Positions 4,619-25,783 are shown, numbered from the stretch's first letter. The stretch is 64,000 nucleotides of DNA from SAR86 cluster bacterium (GCA_023703615.1 CP097971.1:918315-982314); one strand, 5' to 3'. The notes: generated by a model from the letters alone, not told the origin. Numbers and translations are program-made.

Positions 4619-5227
4619 CTATTTTAAACTTCTTGCAAATTTTCTCACTTTTCGCATATGTTTTTCAAAGTCACTTTTTTTCATGTTTGGTAGTACTGAA
4701 TAGAATCTTAAATACTTCGTCTTGAGTCCACCGGATTGAAATATTGATTTTTTCAATCTTCTGTAAGGAATATTATCAAATAGAGAAAAATTAAAATAAC
4801 TCACCATTGGTCCACCATAGGTCATAGAAACAATACCAATCTTATTCTTCATTGCTCCTGCAACAGGATATCCATAGTTACCAAAAAATTTACTATCAGG
4901 TAATAATGATTTGTATGAAAAGAACCATGTGGGATGAAGAACCCAGTCAATCCAATTTTCTAGAATCACATTCATTCTTAAATTATGACAAGCACTCATT
5001 AAAAACATTGCATCTGAATCTTCTAGTCTGCTTCTGTAATCCATTACTAATTGAGGAGGAGGATTTATATCACTTCTGTAAAATGGTAATTGCTCTTCTT
5101 CATCAAACAAATTTATCAAATCTATTTCATGTCCAATTTTTTTTGATTCTTCAATAAAGGTATCTCTAACAGATGCATTAAAAGAATCTTTAGTATTAAA
5201 ATGGCCAAAAACTATACAAATTTTCAT
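4619..5227 (-). CDS. flavodoxin-like fold NAD(P)H (quinone) oxidoreductase family protein
   Basis: 'MKICIVFGHFNTKDSFNASVRD' N-terminus. I place the start at the ATG at 5227. The ORF-track TTG at 5242 lies inside the duplicated guaA tail. Confidence 0.6.
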   Translation of the reverse strand: MKICIVFGHFNTKDSFNASVRDTFIEESKKIGHEIDLINLFDEEEQLPFYRSDINPPPQLVMDYRSRLEDSDAMFLMSACHNLRMNVILENWIDWVLHPTWFFSYKSLLPDSKFFGNYGYPVAGAMKNKIGIVSMTYGGPMVSYFNFSLFDNIPYRRLKKSIFQSGGLKTKYLRFYSVLPNMKKSDFEKHMRKVRKFARSLK

Positions 5228-5230
5228 ATT

Positions 5231-5246
5231 ATTCCCACTCAATAGT
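5231..5246. repeat. distal copy of 16-bp direct repeat (pseudo guaA 3' end)
   Basis: Exact match to 7865-7880, read directly from the sequence. Confidence 0.9.
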
Positions 5247-5317
5247 AGAATGCCTCTGAAACCCTTGTATAGATAGTGTTTCAGAATAGTGTGTCACATT
5301 TGTGTCATACGAATTAT

Positions 5318-5608
5318 TCATTTGTATGCCCTATCGTAAACTTCTATAAATTCTTCGATGTCTGCTATGTGTCCTTCAAAATGTAAAATATCTTTTTCAT
5401 AACCGTCTATGAGTTCTTTAGTCAATTTCTTAATTCTTGCAAAATCGATTTCATACATTCTACCGTTTTCATAATGTTCCCGATTTTCATCTAATAAATC
5501 AATGACTACTTTTTGTCTTTTTTTAAAACCTTCAAGAGTTTTCTTTTGATTAGGTAATTTTCGTTTTACGACTTTATATAATTCGTGGTCATTCTCTAAA
5601 TAACTCAT
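5318..5608 (-). CDS. hypothetical charged 96-aa protein
   Basis: ORF with an ATGA overlap to the upstream small membrane ORF. No recognisable motif. Confidence 0.4.
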   Translation of the reverse strand: MSYLENDHELYKVVKRKLPNQKKTLEGFKKRQKVVIDLLDENREHYENGRMYEIDFARIKKLTKELIDGYEKDILHFEGHIADIEEFIEVYDRAYK

Positions 5609-5808
5609 TTACCTGTAAGTATATATTGAAAGGAATACTTTGAAAAAATTAGGAAACCGTAAAGAGCGCAAAGTGCTCTCCATGCAGGCATGTCGAAATT
5701 TTCCATAACAATAAGAAGAGGACTGGGAAAATAACCATCATTTGGAATTATAGATATTGTCAAAATTACAAATAGTATATTGTGTAACCTCTGAATTTTT
5801 TCGTTCAT
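5605..5808 (-). CDS. hypothetical small membrane protein (2 predicted TM segments)
   Basis: 67 aa. Hydrophobic stretches 'ILFVILTISII' and 'ALCALYGFLIF'. Coupled to the downstream ORF. Confidence 0.35.
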   Translation of the reverse strand: MNEKIQRLHNILFVILTISIIPNDGYFPSPLLIVMENFDMPAWRALCALYGFLIFSKYSFQYILTGK

Positions 5809-5832
5809 CTTTTAATCTGTTTATTCATTAAC

Positions 5833-6360
5833 TTATTTTTTTGACCATGACCAAGATATAGTTGTATTTTTTACACAATGGTTGTTTGTTACGAAGTTGT
5901 GGTAACCAATTCCACTAGACATATTTGATACCGAACCACTATATTTGGCAACTGCTCTTCCTCTTGATTGTATTAATATATCTTCAGACCATGACATTAA
6001 TGGATCTTTATCGGAATCTAAAAAAGTTATTTCATATTTTAATGTCGCAGTATTTTTAGTTCGATTAACAACATCCATTTTCCATCCTGACAACTGATAG
6101 CATCCTAAATTTTTAACTATAAAATCACCATTAAATAACTCGGTATCATTAAAGGATAAAACTTTTTTATCAAGATCAGAACTCCCTATAACTGATGAGG
6201 AACCACTACCTGACAAAGAACCTCCCCAACCAGAACTTCTATGACAATGATATCCACCAGTTTTAGTCTCTTTATGACAACCGTATCTGTCTAAACCGCC
6301 TCCATGTGAAAATAGAGCACTTGAAAAAGCAAAAAATATAACTGCAAAAAGATATTTCAT
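5833..6360 (-). CDS. secreted YHYH-motif domain protein
   Basis: Signal peptide 'MKYLFAVIFFAFSSALFSHG' followed by 'GGLDRYGCHKETKTGGYHCH' (YHYH-domain signature). Start placed at the internal ATG (M7 of the track ORF). Confidence 0.6.
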   Translation of the reverse strand: MKYLFAVIFFAFSSALFSHGGGLDRYGCHKETKTGGYHCHRSSGWGGSLSGSGSSSVIGSSDLDKKVLSFNDTELFNGDFIVKNLGCYQLSGWKMDVVNRTKNTATLKYEITFLDSDKDPLMSWSEDILIQSRGRAVAKYSGSVSNMSSGIGYHNFVTNNHCVKNTTISWSWSKK

Positions 6361-6487
6361 TATGATTATTATACACATTGAAAATATGCAAAAAATCCCA
6401 ATATAAATAAGTGTAAAGAAAGAAATATATTCCTTATTTCAGATTCCATTACTCACATCAACATACCTAATTTTGGGTGTGTTTTTT

Positions 6488-6802
6488 ATGGAGAAAAATA
6501 TGCAAGTATTTAAATGTGAAATTAACAATCCGAAAGGAAAAATCAATCATAACGTTCACGTTGATTGGGATGATCAAGGTAACCTACATTTTTGTGAACA
6601 CGATCTTGGAGATGGTGTAAAAGAGTTTTGGGGAACTGATGAGTATGAATACTTTATGATGATTCCGCAAAAGCATGTCGCAAAGTTTATTCTTTGTTCT
6701 TTTTGGAAAGGTTTTACTTTTGAAGGGAGATTCACAGTTAAAGAATTAAGAGAATTATGTGATGAATACAAAATTGAATATCAAACTGATTTTTGGATGT
6801 AA
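6488..6802 (+). CDS. hypothetical protein
   Basis: ORF on the opposite strand to its neighbours. The first ATG is at 6488 (the track uses TTG at 6473). No motif recognised. Confidence 0.4.
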   Translation: MEKNMQVFKCEINNPKGKINHNVHVDWDDQGNLHFCEHDLGDGVKEFWGTDEYEYFMMIPQKHVAKFILCSFWKGFTFEGRFTVKELRELCDEYKIEYQTDFWM

Positions 6803-6817
6803 TTAATTAAAAAATAA

Positions 6818-7753
6818 TTATCTTTTATATTCGTTTAGACTGAAGTTAACCTCATATGTAAAAATCTCAACATCCTTTGCTCTTTTTTGTGCGTAGTAAA
6901 GTTTTTCATCAAATTTTCCAGCAACAATAATACCTTTAACATTCTCATCTTGTTTTTTCTCTTCAATCCATCCCATGTATCTTAAAATTTGTCCAACTGT
7001 GTCATCACTCGTTTGATTTCTTTTTAGTTCTATCACAACGTGGTGTCCGTCTTTTTTATCTTTTGCAAGAATATCTATTCTTCCAATGTCAGTCATATAC
7101 TGCTGACTTTTTAAATCACCCTCTTCATATATAAGATCATATTTTTTTCCAAACTCTGTTTCATTCCAATTTTCAATAATGAAGTCTTCTAGTTGTTGCT
7201 CCATATAGAACAAACCAGAACTCATTGATGACTTTTCATCTTTAAGTTCTATATTAAGACACTCTTTAAAAAAATTAACTATTTCTTTTAATTCTTGGAG
7301 AAGTTCTTCATCTGATATCTCTTTACCGTCTCTACAAAAAATTACATCACCATTTTTAATTTCAGGTTCGTAATGTTTGTATACAAATGAATCTCCATAT
7401 CTGAAAGGATTTTCAATAAAATTTGAAATCTTTGTCTTGGAATCATGTATCTCTCTAGTCCAACTTGTTTCTGGAATATGAGTCTCACTTATGCCATATG
7501 CAAGAATCAATATATTCTGTTCTTTATAAAATAAATAAACTGGGTTATATCCATTACTCACCGGCATATCCGGTGCTCTCAATGCAACCCATGGCACTTT
7601 TGATAAATTACCTTGTCCGAAAGATACCTTCATTTTAAGATCTAAAAATTCTTTAGGGTAATCTTTCGTTTTAAGACTATCTGTCTCTGTTTGCTTGATA
7701 AAATCTTTTAAGAATTCCATTGAATAAGTATGCCATGAACTTATGACTTTCAA
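6818..7753 (-). CDS. McrB-N-like (DUF3578-type) DNA-reader domain fused to NucS/DUF91-like PD-(D/E)xK nuclease; putative modification-dependent restriction endonuclease
   Basis: N-terminal half: 'LKMKVSFGQGNLSKVPWVALRAPDMPVSNGYNPVYLFYKEQNILILAYGIS'. C-terminal half: 'EQQLEDFIIENW...DIGRIDILAKDKKDGHHVVIELKRNQTSDDTVGQILRYMGWI...VKGIIVA'. Confidence 0.6.
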   Translation of the reverse strand: MKVISSWHTYSMEFLKDFIKQTETDSLKTKDYPKEFLDLKMKVSFGQGNLSKVPWVALRAPDMPVSNGYNPVYLFYKEQNILILAYGISETHIPETSWTREIHDSKTKISNFIENPFRYGDSFVYKHYEPEIKNGDVIFCRDGKEISDEELLQELKEIVNFFKECLNIELKDEKSSMSSGLFYMEQQLEDFIIENWNETEFGKKYDLIYEEGDLKSQQYMTDIGRIDILAKDKKDGHHVVIELKRNQTSDDTVGQILRYMGWIEEKKQDENVKGIIVAGKFDEKLYYAQKRAKDVEIFTYEVNFSLNEYKR

Positions 7754-7862
7754 TAGTTCTTAAAGTGTGTCAGATTTGTATTTGTAAGATTTGGAAACCT
7801 GCATTCCTACATTGAAGTGACAAATTGTCTCATACGTAAACTACTGATATAAGGTAATTATT

Positions 7863-9428
7863 TCATTCCCACTCAATAGTTGCAGGCGGTTTACTGGAAA
7901 TATCGTAAACTACCCTGCTTACATCTTCTATTTCATTAACTATTCTATTAGAAACATGTTCTAAAAATTCATAGGGTAAATGTGCCCATCTAGCTGTCAT
8001 AAAGTCGACTGTCTCAACTGCTCTTAATCCTATAACTTCTGCATATCTTCTTTCATCTCCAACAACTCCAACTGATTTTATTGGTAAAAGAACTGCGAAA
8101 GCTTGACTGACTTTATTGTAATGATCTGCTTTAATGAGCTCCTCTATAAAAATATTATCTGCTTCTTGCAATACTTTCACTTTTTCTTTTGTTACCTCTC
8201 CTAAAATTCTTACACCCAAGCCTGGACCAGGAAAAGGATGTCTATTTATCATTGATGAAGATATACCCATTGCGGCCCCCATTTTTCTTACTTCATCTTT
8301 AAATAGATCTCTTAAGGGTTCAACTAAATTTAATTTCATCTCTTCAGGCAAACCACCCACATTATGATGGGATTTTATGACTCTAGCTTCTTTTGATTCT
8401 GATCCTGAGGACTCTATTACATCAGGATAAATTGTCCCTTGTGCTAAAAATGAAATATCTTTTAACTTTGTTGCTTCTGAATCAAATACATCAATAAAGG
8501 TTCGACCAATTATCTTTCTTTTTTGTTCTGGATCTTCGATATTTTTTAAATGTCTAAAAAAAATTTCTTGAGAATCTGATTTTATAACATTGAGATTCAT
8601 GTGTTCTTTAAATGTTTCCATTACTGAAATAGCTTCATCTTTTCTTAATAATCCATTATCAACAAATACACACGTAAGTTTTTTACCAATTGCCTTGTTA
8701 AGCAAAGCAGCTGTAACTGAAGAATCAACTCCGCCAGATAGCCCTAAAAGAACTTTTTTGTCGCCAACTTGATCTTTGATTTCATTTATTCTTGATGAAA
8801 TTAAATCATCCATCTTCCACTCTGATTTTGCTTTTGCGATATCAAAAATGAAGTTATCCAATATTTCATTTCCACTTTTAGTGTGAGTAACTTCTGGATG
8901 AAACTGAAGAGCATAAATTGGTAAGGTTTTGTGCTGCATTGCTGCTACTGGAGCTGTTTGAGTTGATGCGATAAGATCAAATTCATCTGGTAAATCTTGA
9001 ACTTGATCTCCATGACTCATCCAAACGTTTAATTTTTTAGGTAAATTTTTAAATAAAGTTGAGTCATTCACAATCTTTAGTTCTGAATGTCCAAATTCTT
9101 TTTGATTTGATGATATGACGCTACCACCCATTTGTTCAGCAAGTGTTTGCATGCCGTAGCAAATTCCTAAAATCGGAACATTAATATCAAAGAGGCATTT
9201 TGGTATTCTTGGTGTAAAACTCTCAGTAACAGAATTAGGTCCACCCGAAAGTATTACTGCTTTGGGATTAAGTTTTATAATTTTTTCTTCAGATATGTCC
9301 CATGGTAATATTTCAGAATAAACAAGGCTCTCTCTAACTCTTCTTGCAATTAATTGAGTGTATTGTGAACCAAAATCTAAAACTAAAATTGTGTCAATCT
9401 TTTTATTGCTAACAGATAGTTTGCTCAT
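7863..9428 (-). CDS. guaA: GMP synthase (glutamine-hydrolysing)
   Basis: Full-length 521 aa with GATase 'GICYGMQ', PP-loop '[10 protein letters not shown]' and canonical C-terminus 'KPPATIEWE'. Confidence 0.97.
7865..7880. repeat. proximal copy of 16-bp direct repeat (genuine guaA 3' end)
   Basis: Exact match to 5231-5246. Encodes TIEWE plus the first base of the stop codon. Confidence 0.9.
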
Positions 9429-12962: not shown

Positions 12963-13772
12963 ATGTCAAATGTTTCACCAATTAAGATAGATATTTTAGA
13001 TGGAAGGCTTCCGGTAAAAGAAAAAGGTATTAAAATGCAAGAATTTTCAAGTACGGCTGAACTTAGAAGAAACCAACTTGAGAAACTTGCTGCAGGCTTT
13101 AGATTGTTTGATTATTTTGGTTTTAATGAGGGACTTGCTGGCCACATTACTTATAGAGATCCAGAATTTGCAGACCATTTTTGGGTAAATCCTCTAGGTG
13201 TTCATTTCTCCCAAATTTCAGTATCTGATCTTATTTTAGTAAATCATGATGGTAATATTATTCAAGGTGATAAGGACATTAATGTAGCTGCTTTTGCAAT
13301 TCACTCAAGGCTTCATCAAGCCAGACCTGATATAAACTCAGCTGCTCATTCTCATTCTATATATGGAAGGACATTTTCAACATTAGGAAAACTACTTGAT
13401 CCAATATCTCAAGATGCTTGTGCATTTTATGAAAATCAAAGCATTTATAAAGATTTTTCTGGAGTCGTTGAAGAAGTTGATGAAGGTGATGAAATAGCTA
13501 AAGCTTTGGGTGATAAAAAAGTTATTATCATGCAAAACCATGGAATTTTAACAACAGGCCCATCAGTCGACATCGCCTTGTGGTTTTACATGTCTATGGA
13601 AAGATCCTGTCAGGCTCAGTTGATGGCAGAAGCAGCAGGAGATCCAGTAATTATTGATCATGAAACAGCTGTTAAAACAAGAGAGTTTATTGCAAATGAC
13701 ATTGCAGCTTGGGCAAGTTATCAACCAGCTTTTGACAAAATTGTTAAAGCCCAGCCAGATCTATTAGATTAA
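12963..13772 (+). CDS. class II aldolase/adducin family protein
   Basis: 'GHITYRDP', 'AAFAIHSRLHQARPDINSAAHSHS' and 'MQNHGILT' motifs. Confidence 0.8.
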   Translation: MSNVSPIKIDILDGRLPVKEKGIKMQEFSSTAELRRNQLEKLAAGFRLFDYFGFNEGLAGHITYRDPEFADHFWVNPLGVHFSQISVSDLILVNHDGNIIQGDKDINVAAFAIHSRLHQARPDINSAAHSHSIYGRTFSTLGKLLDPISQDACAFYENQSIYKDFSGVVEEVDEGDEIAKALGDKKVIIMQNHGILTTGPSVDIALWFYMSMERSCQAQLMAEAAGDPVIIDHETAVKTREFIANDIAAWASYQPAFDKIVKAQPDLLD

Positions 13773-24986: not shown

Positions 24987-25063
24987 CGGGATGTAGCGCA
25001 GTCTGGTAGCGCACTACACTGGGGGTGTAGTGGTCGTCGGTTCAAATCCGGCCATCCCGACCA
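24987..25063 (+). tRNA. tRNA-Pro (anticodon GGG)
   Basis: Hand-folded cloverleaf. Acceptor CGGGATG/CATCCCG, D stem GCGC/GCGC, anticodon stem CTACA/TGTAG with loop CTGGGGG (GGG at 25021-25023). T arm GTCGG-TTCAAAT-CCGGC, discriminator A, encoded CCA. Confidence 0.9.
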
Positions 25064-25258: not shown

Positions 25259-25783
25259 ATGGCAAAATTCATTAAATCAAAATTCAGAGTTCTTTGGGGT
25301 ACGGTTTTTGCATTCTTTTATGGCTTCTTTGCCTCAGAAGCAATAGCTGATGACCACGAAGGAGATATGGCAGAAGAGGAAAAGGCTCCAGATAGCAAGT
25401 TGAGTCCTGGTGCAATTGCAGCTGCAGTAGCAGCGGCAGCTGCTTTAATAGCATCTGATAGTGATGATAGTTCGGCAACACCAGCACCAGCACCATTACC
25501 ATCACCAACGCCTACGCCTACGCCTACGCCTACACCAACGCCTACGCCTACGCCTACGCCTACGCCTACGCCAACGCCAACGCCAACGCCAACGCCTACG
25601 CCTACGCCTACGCCAACGCCTACGCCAACGCCTACGCCAACGCCTACAACACCGGCAACTACTACTAGTACTAGTACTAGCACAAGTACAACACCAGCAA
25701 CAAGTACAAGTACAAGTACAAGCACAAGCACAAGCACAAGTACAAGTACAAGTACAAGCACAAGTACAAGCACTGGCACATAA
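25259..25783 (+). CDS. secreted low-complexity protein: signal peptide, acidic/Ala-rich segment, (PT)24 and (ST)n tracts
   Basis: 'MAKFIKSKFRVLWGTVFAFFYGFFASEAIA' signal, then 'PTPT...' and 'STST...' to the C-terminus. Followed by a strong terminator. No globular domain. Confidence 0.7.
   Translation: MAKFIKSKFRVLWGTVFAFFYGFFASEAIADDHEGDMAEEEKAPDSKLSPGAIAAAVAAAAALIASDSDDSSATPAPAPLPSPTPTPTPTPTPTPTPTPTPTPTPTPTPTPTPTPTPTPTPTPTPTPTPTTPATTTSTSTSTSTTPATSTSTSTSTSTSTSTSTSTSTSTSTGT
25505..25648 (+). repeat. hexanucleotide tandem repeat (CCW-ACG)x24 encoding Pro-Thr
   Basis: Read directly: cca acg cct acg cct ... in the CDS frame. Confidence 0.95.
25667..25774 (+). repeat. hexanucleotide tandem repeat (AGY-ACW)n encoding Ser-Thr
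   Basis: Read directly: agt act agt act agc aca agt aca ..., with one short interruption (aca cca gca aca). Confidence 0.9.

Follow-up and report, generated by a model that had tools for sequence, protein, structure and literature searches.

What placed a second, exact copy of the end of guaA next to a flavodoxin-like gene in a SAR86 genome, with five small genes lying between the two copies? Few bacterial groups of the surface ocean are as abundant as SAR86, whose genome is streamlined. The locus lies in a stretch of 64,000 nt from SAR86 cluster bacterium (GCA_023703615.1, CP097971.1:918315-982314), which is called the window here and in which positions are counted from its first letter. The best relatives of its guaA gene are found in SAR86 single-cell genomes and metagenome-assembled genomes (MAGs). 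The islet between the two copies is very probably a precise site-specific insertion at the guaA end, and it would represent an integrase-less derivative of an element with type-A arms that resembles the cis-mobilizable elements (CIMEs) of streptococci.

The repeated guaA end and its empty alleles

guaA codes for GMP synthase (Pfam domains GATase and GMP_synt_C) and is the target of the insertion. It is located on the minus strand at 7863-9428, with its TGA stop at 7863-7865. The string ATTCCCACTCAATAGT occurs at 5231-5246 and at 7865-7880, as the first-pass annotation of the window had reported, and there is no third copy in the window at ≤2 mismatches, a search for which 0.05 matches are expected in shuffled sequence. 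The proximal copy (7865-7880, minus strand; ACTATTGAGTGGGAAT on the guaA strand) is the core of the left attachment site, attL. It is constructed from the final 15 nt of guaA, which encode the last five residues TIEWE, and from the T of the TGA stop, and it includes GAGTGGGA, the reported core motif of the guaA-specific element GIsul2. The core of attR is the second exact copy (5231-5246, minus strand), which is placed 3 nt upstream of the start codon (ATG, 5225-5227) in a gene of the Flavodoxin_2 family (4619-5227, minus strand, assigned by Pfam). This gene forms the distal flank of the insertion and adjoins guaA in empty alleles.

Empty and occupied alleles were retrieved from public assemblies through exact matches to the GuaA and flavodoxin-like proteins. 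Two genomes of the same species are occupied, namely CABZQH010000001.1 (GCA_902527795.1), which is 100% identical to the window, and GCA_902562085.1, which has 9 mismatches to it over 18.5 kb. The empty allele is seen in ten contigs of the species, and in these the guaA stop codon TAA is followed by one base and then by the ATG of the flavodoxin-like gene. The junction reads ...GCA ACTATTGAGTGGGAAT AATATG... with a single core, and it is identical to the attR core and the sequence after it in the window. Alignments of the empty contigs to the window stop at 7865 and resume at 5246, and the overlap between the two parts is exactly the 16 nt of the core. Because the alignment breaks coincide with the repeat, the insertion is precise, measures 2634 bp, and is bounded by the repeat. 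The first-pass annotation had read the repeat as the footprint of site-specific insertion into the guaA 3′ end, with attL regenerating the gene and attR leaving a stray copy; these precise empty sites, in which guaA abuts the flavodoxin-like gene with one 16-mer and a junction exactly at the repeat, bear that reading out.

The GuaA protein is 100% identical between occupied and empty alleles, and the stop codon is TGA in the former and TAA in the latter. Nucleotide identity to the window is 99.7-99.9% for the guaA flank of the empty alleles and 98.3-99.9% for their flavodoxin flank. In L140, the closest empty allele, it reaches 99.9% in either flank, with 15 mismatches in 15 kb. Presence or absence of the islet is polymorphic in the population, in a near-clonal background. 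Two further SAR86 species with empty sites are known (L009, L018).

The repeat by itself is weak evidence and would not be significant, as about 10 other exact 16-17 nt pairs, unrelated and non-tandem, are found in the AT-rich window. An expectation of ~0.5 for any such pair, given in the first-pass annotation, was therefore too low, whereas its argument that placement carries the case holds: the case rests on the placement of the repeat and on comparative data, not on the repeat alone. Composition likewise fails to mark the islet off, since GC content (0.304 against 0.309 in the flanks) and tetranucleotide usage (92nd percentile) do not separate it from its flanks, and the compositional comparison proposed in the first-pass annotation is uninformative. 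The many unrelated pairs and the ordinary composition would both suit a chance 16-bp match in an AT-rich genome, with the region as a vertically inherited variable intergenic stretch. Such a match is next to impossible, as it is refuted by empty sites that break exactly at the repeat and by the recurrence of the core, in direct orientation and with conserved arms, in dozens of genomes and at least 120 metagenome contigs. The strongest exact repeats of the window are found elsewhere, in hexanucleotide tandem arrays at 25503-25760 (ACGCCT/ACGCCA, then ACAAGT/ACAAGC) that lie just downstream of tRNA-Pro(GGG) at 24987-25063.

Integrase-bearing relatives at the same site

Integrase-bearing elements with the same core occupy the guaA end in SAR86 and in other marine gammaproteobacteria. 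A first local hidden Markov model (HMM), which was built from P4-like and Firmicute integrases, gave no match in SAR86 guaA loci and also missed the marine integrase family, which surfaced via one metagenome match (L228). Several of the listed metagenome contigs harbor a tyrosine recombinase directly after the core and left arm. The integrases fall into two families. In all examined contexts of family 1, the relatives of L228, the integrase lies downstream of guaA at a distance of ~210-240 nt. A 6.8-kb family-1 element is present in a SAR86 single-cell genome (L270, GC 34%) with a GuaA that is 81% identical to that of the window; its cores lie at 6770-6785 and 13602-13617 of that locus, and its arms contain TTGTAAAC repeats. 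Family-1 elements additionally encode, on the opposite strand, a second tyrosine recombinase of 191-192 aa that consists of the catalytic domain only (L270 8967-9542, L228 1997-2575, L272 12080-12658), and they also carry DUF6626 and a zf-C4_ClpX protein.

Family 2 integrases have ~405 aa, are 29% identical to family 1 (E 6e-44), and are followed by a serine resolvase of 195 aa. The family comprises 241 protein clusters at E ≤1e-10, and the gene order is guaB-guaA-int-resolvase in every context read. The element in L268 takes up 3.9 kb and runs from the guaA end through core, type-B left arm, int, resolvase, two small open reading frames (ORFs), and type-B right arm to the second core. Its guaA end is of the SAR86 type, with 97% amino acid identity to the window over 30 residues. 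Type-A arms are found in the SAR86-type contigs L236 and L199 (both with GC 32% and with the element downstream of another cassette) and in L274, which is the complete 1.6-Mb genome CP151794.1 of a marine gammaproteobacterium with a GuaA 60% identical to that of the window. The L274 element spans 7.16 kb and combines type-A arms with int, resolvase, and a type II restriction-modification pair. Further integrase elements with the same core at guaA are found in other gammaproteobacteria (L271-L273, L276-L279). One identical 404-aa integrase (P0286; L276-L279) stands beside three different guaA alleles in hosts with a GC content of 38-50%, which indicates recent horizontal movement of the element family. 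The assembly collection lists this integrase in 231 blocks, and its element appears to be spreading very actively among marine gammaproteobacteria. Cargo is also held in common, as an EcoRI-type methylase and GmrSD occur both in the integrase-bearing L276 and in the integrase-less first cassette of L022. A search of relatives for recombinase-bearing elements at this position had been suggested in the first-pass annotation, and these tyrosine-recombinase elements are what it looked for.

The marine integrases are composed of the domains Phage_int_SAM_5 and Phage_integrase and have no P4-type arm-binding domain; no NCBIfam family matches them above its cut-off. Between the L268 integrase and an enterobacterial P4-like integrase at guaA, a partner that is not the GIsul2 Int itself, BLASTP gives E 0.18. 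In 72,556 PLSDB plasmids (tblastn), the L270 integrase has no match and the L268 integrase has only matches of 20-25% identity to unrelated integrases. No conjugation or mobilization genes are seen in the 3.9-7.2 kb elements. Viral contigs searched with the SAR86 right arm and core gave no match, and the bare 16-mer is found in viral contigs only at guaA ends of unrelated bacteria at prophage borders; about 30 of the 54 IMG/VR contigs with the 16-mer are prophage predictions that are bordered by such an end. A DUF6538 protein of 152 aa (L057, L062), the sole recombinase-like match among the array cargo, was considered as a truncated integrase and rejected, as the members of its family are proteins of 146-152 aa that stand alone. 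It is encoded directly upstream of the flavodoxin-like gene (L062 11705-12163, L057 13049-13507) and combines the DUF6538 domain, usually an integrase N-terminus, with a C-terminal hydrophobic helix; the family has >1000 members in marine metagenomes.

The islet is linked to these elements through its arms. The right arm on the attR side (5247-5317, minus strand) is of type A, and over its final 62 nt it hardly differs from that of the integrase-bearing elements L236, L199, and L274. It is laid out as a direct repeat TGACACAAATGTGACACAC (~5289-5309), a hairpin TCTGAAAC..GTTTCAGA (~5255-5285) that ends in GGGTTTCAGAGG, 6 nt, and the core. The stability of the hairpin exceeds that of shuffled sequence by a narrow margin only (z = -2.15), and a role as canonical terminator was rejected because no T-run follows it. 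The left arm on the attL side (7721-7864, minus strand) is kept in the window, L011, L017, L022, L025, L027, and L038 with differing cargo. It contains TGACAC-type motifs, one of which is mutated to TGAGAC in the window. The alignment of the window's left arm with the type-A left arm carries on into int, for about the first 25 nt of its coding sequence, before it gives way to cargo, so that a remnant of the integrase start is retained (ACTATTGAAAGTCATAAGTTCATGG in the window, ACTACTGATAGTCATAAGTTTCAAC in int). Together, the right-arm match and the left-arm alignment through the start of int characterize the islet as a type-A element in which the int-resolvase module is replaced by cargo. A sigma-70 promoter that had been proposed by eye in the left arm is unsupported by a consensus scan.

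The insertion proceeded as follows. An attP-type core, identical to the guaA terminus, recombined with attB, the last 16 nt of guaA. At attL the guaA frame was regenerated, with the element supplying the new TGA, and at attR the second core came to lie before the flavodoxin-like gene. By its sequence, the islet differs from the autonomous type-A layout of left arm, ~405-aa tyrosine integrase, and serine resolvase by the swap of this module for cargo. Integration and any excision would depend on a type-A integrase that acts in trans from an autonomous element in the same cell, and the TGACAC repeats in both arms are putative arm-type binding sites of this integrase. We infer such mobilization in trans from the shared arms and from the precedent of the CR2-sul2 unit, which is described below.

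Two other routes to a bounded insertion were considered. The 16-nt repeat could be a target-site duplication made by a transposase, and an insertion right after a conserved gene does resemble Tn7-type homing, whether Tn7-like or by a CRISPR-associated transposon (CAST). This is highly improbable, because transposases do not characteristically leave a 16-20 bp duplication with a constant sequence, and here one 16-nt sequence recurs everywhere instead of varying duplications. No transposase is present in any array, terminal inverted repeats are absent, and the autonomous relatives encode tyrosine and serine recombinases. A dif/Xer model, as in integrative mobile elements exploiting Xer (IMEX), was rejected by inspection, since the core is neither dif-like nor palindromic.

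Islet cargo and cassette arrays downstream of guaA

The segment 5247-7880 consists of one core and 2618 bp of cargo, and five ORFs lie between the two cores. Adjacent to the left arm, a 300-aa fusion of a McrB-N-like DNA-binding domain with a NucS/PD-(D/E)XK nuclease is encoded at 6818-7720 (minus strand; Pfam and NCBIfam scans), which is likely a modification-dependent restriction enzyme. A TTG start at 7753 for this ORF is an artefact of the conserved arm. It is followed by a 100-aa hypothetical protein (6500-6802, plus strand), a 175-aa YHYH-domain protein with a signal-peptide-like N-terminus (5833-6360, minus strand), a hydrophobic membrane peptide of 67 aa (5605-5808, minus strand) with homologs of 60-67% identity in other cassettes (L165, L203, L252), and a 96-aa hypothetical protein without Pfam match (5318-5608, minus strand). 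The domain scans agree with the cargo listed in the first-pass annotation (secreted YHYH protein, small membrane peptide, two small hypotheticals, nuclease fusion). No recombination or transfer genes are found among the five ORFs by Pfam and NCBIfam scans. A 450-bp module at 6368-6819, which harbors the 100-aa ORF and its upstream region, recurs with 91-96% nucleotide identity and the same end points in L022, L214, L259, and L165, where the surrounding cassettes are otherwise different.

The islet is one case of a variable region. Among the 17 SAR86 species-level genomes that carry the flavodoxin-like gene within 10 kb of guaA, the gap between the two genes ranges from 1 nt (L009, L018) to 5.9 kb. 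The core consensus ACTATTGAGTGGGA(A/G)T has 58 matches in direct orientation downstream of guaA at ≤3 mismatches, compared to 7 in the inverted and 7 in the upstream control (~520 kb each). One or more extra cores are found in 24 of 51 SAR86 species genomes at ≤2 mismatches, with up to four extra cores, so that the largest SAR86 arrays contain five cores including that of guaA itself. The segments between cores are cassettes of 0.4-2 kb, mostly in one orientation, in which the arms at the left and right are conserved and the cargo varies. The ~90 nt ahead of a core belong to a few right-arm families and the ~150 nt past it to a few left-arm families, and the same arm types surround unrelated genes at differing array positions. 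The metagenome contigs mentioned above were retrieved with the right arm and core as query.

According to Pfam, the cargo of 38 arrays (63 protein clusters) includes defence genes (EcoRI-type methylase with GmrSD/HNH, DUF3800, GIY-YIG) as well as FkbM methyltransferases, acyltransferases, MFS transporters, and dehydrogenases. These clusters contain neither an integrase nor a transposase or resolvase. The conserved left arm yields spurious TTG-start N-termini (‘MKVISSWH’) on unrelated first genes, a point that matters for annotation. Multi-cassette arrays would arise by repeated integration at the regenerated guaA core. The flavodoxin-like flank is probably itself a cassette of this array that became fixed long ago. 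The first-pass annotation had described everything outside the islet as housekeeping, which is too strong, as the flavodoxin-like gene is in some SAR86 genomes itself succeeded by a cassette right arm and core and is often absent here.

Arrays of this kind could also be the product of an integron-like platform, in which a domesticated chromosomal recombinase encoded elsewhere shuffles promoterless cassettes at an attI-like site. Up to five cores, short cassettes with conserved ends and a hairpin, arrays free of a recombinase, and the same cassette type at differing array positions are all reminiscent of integrons. This explanation is nevertheless improbable: no IntI-type gene adjoins the site, and diverse attC sites are absent, as every boundary is the one 16-nt core that equals the guaA end. 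The arms moreover match those of autonomous elements, which makes decayed copies the simpler account of the cassettes, and the hairpin is weak by the z-score given above.

Side observations were made at several related loci. In some SAR86 genomes the flavodoxin-like gene is followed within ~100 nt by a type-B right arm and core (window 4619-5227, L017 12984-13713, L242 278-980, L168, L244), and in many SAR86 genomes the gene is absent from this position. L217 (Ga0206682_10004729, GC 45%, GuaA 57% identical to that of the window) contains six cores in 8.3 kb downstream of guaA and belongs to a non-SAR86 gammaproteobacterium, so that the array phenomenon reaches beyond SAR86. In L118 (117-190; an IMG/VR contig of 624 kb, GC 35%) the guaA end is followed by tandem GGTTGAATGGGAATAG, that is, by the guaA end reiterated head to tail. 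Duplicated guaA 3′ ends are found 1-2.7 kb past the intact gene in L042 (12656-12880, 75 codons) and L067 (7497-7589, 31 codons), which could mean that the att region is in some cases considerably longer than the 16-nt core, or that duplications of older date have survived.

Several points weigh against site-specific insertion and mobilization of the islet. As stated in the first-pass annotation, no integrase is found in the islet (5231-7880), and the same applies to the whole window; none adjoins guaA in 63 SAR86 species genomes. The evidence includes neither an excised circle nor an attP junction, and L236 could not be shown to be circular. The first ~60 nt of the left arm of the window differ from those of autonomous type-A elements. 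With this divergence and the mutated TGACAC motif, the islet may no longer be mobilizable, and the mutated motif makes its present-day mobility uncertain. The copy of the 450-bp module in L022 ends at a core, whereas the window has no core at this boundary (~6368-6380), which identifies the islet as a mosaic that has also undergone rearrangement of a non-site-specific kind. Finally, the polymorphism could have spread by homologous recombination of the flanks instead of repeated integration.

The last point can be extended to an explanation in its own right, in which an old site-specific integration took place in another lineage and the islet was brought into this strain by homologous recombination spanning guaA and the flavodoxin-like gene, in the manner of a ‘replacement’ flexible island. 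The present polymorphism would then say nothing on current site-specific activity. Most empty alleles have flavodoxin flanks that are less similar to the window (98.3-99.1%) than their guaA flanks (99.7-99.9%), which fits recombination tracts; modules of the islet are found in other species, and a helper integrase is not seen in the window. L140, with its high identity on both sides, instead argues for gain or loss within a near-clonal background, and identical integrases beside different guaA alleles indicate that the family is currently mobile. Homologous spread is unlikely, though it deserves serious weight, and it concerns spread only: the two cores would still need a site-specific origin.

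Known systems and the meaning for SAR86

Site-specific insertion at guaA has close precedents. GIsul2 integrates at the guaA 3′ end with 19-bp att sites and the core GAGTGGGA, and its integrase mobilizes the integrase-less CR2-sul2 unit via a third att site (PMC9376610). The same gene end is used by PIMEs, ATE-1, and an IncP island (PMC5704250; bioRxiv 10.64898/2026.01.12.698999), so that the statement in the first-pass annotation that guaA ends serve as island integration sites in other bacteria is supported by the literature. The islet shares with GIsul2 the targeted last codons of guaA, a core with the motif, flanking direct repeats, and the regenerated gene end. GIsul2 with CR2-sul2 is the closest precedent, as CR2-sul2 and the islet are both integrase-less and bounded by att sites. 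In contrast to GIsul2 and PIMEs, the islet has no tyrosine integrase of its own, which its relatives do have (L268, L270, L274, L276-L279). The marine elements further differ from the GIsul2 type by the pairing of the integrase with a serine resolvase instead of AlpA/Rep/Mob and by a size of 3.9-7.2 kb.

CIMEs and accretion arrays are known from the ICEs (integrative and conjugative elements) and IMEs (integrative and mobilizable elements) of streptococci (PMC5704250). CIMEs retain attL and attR and have lost the integration module, and in accretion arrays one element after another has integrated at the 3′ end of a conserved gene, each into the att site regenerated there (PMC5704250). The islet likewise keeps attL and attR with element-type arms and lacks recombination and transfer genes, and, to judge by its sequence, it descends from an autonomous element that lost the integrase module. 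It differs in its host, a genome-streamlined marine gammaproteobacterium, and in parents without recognizable ICE/IME transfer genes. Tycheposons, a further system for comparison, were described at tRNA-type sites. They are small tyrosine-recombinase elements of Prochlorococcus, a streamlined oceanic bacterium, and the preprint that reports them mentions neither guaA nor SAR86 (bioRxiv 10.1101/2020.12.28.424599). The marine guaA elements resemble them in lifestyle: some forms carry cargo and others are reduced, repeats in tandem mark the junctions, islands are built at a small number of fixed att sites, and presence or absence varies within populations.

No mobile elements, integrases, or islands described for SAR86 were found in the literature searched. 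The mechanism is of a known kind, and what is new is the host clade, the integrase lineage, the architecture of int with resolvase, and the scale of the cassette arrays. Two integrase lineages without BLAST-level similarity, the P4-like lineage of enterobacterial islands and prophages and the marine family, share the guaA target GAGTGGGA. With a defined attB, element arms, and candidate integrases, the exchange of defence and surface genes in SAR86 becomes testable.

A wider reading can be put forward tentatively. In SAR86 and other marine gammaproteobacteria with streamlined genomes, the 3′ terminus of guaA may serve as the chief platform for gene capture, run by a previously undescribed family of minimal int-resolvase elements with at least three arm types (TGACAC, TTGACAAAG, and TTGTAAAC), whose integrase-less derivatives would form integron-like arrays of defence, cell-surface, and transport genes. 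If this is true, the guaA platform would be a functional counterpart of the tycheposons of Prochlorococcus and would provide a concrete, testable mechanism of gene flux for SAR86.

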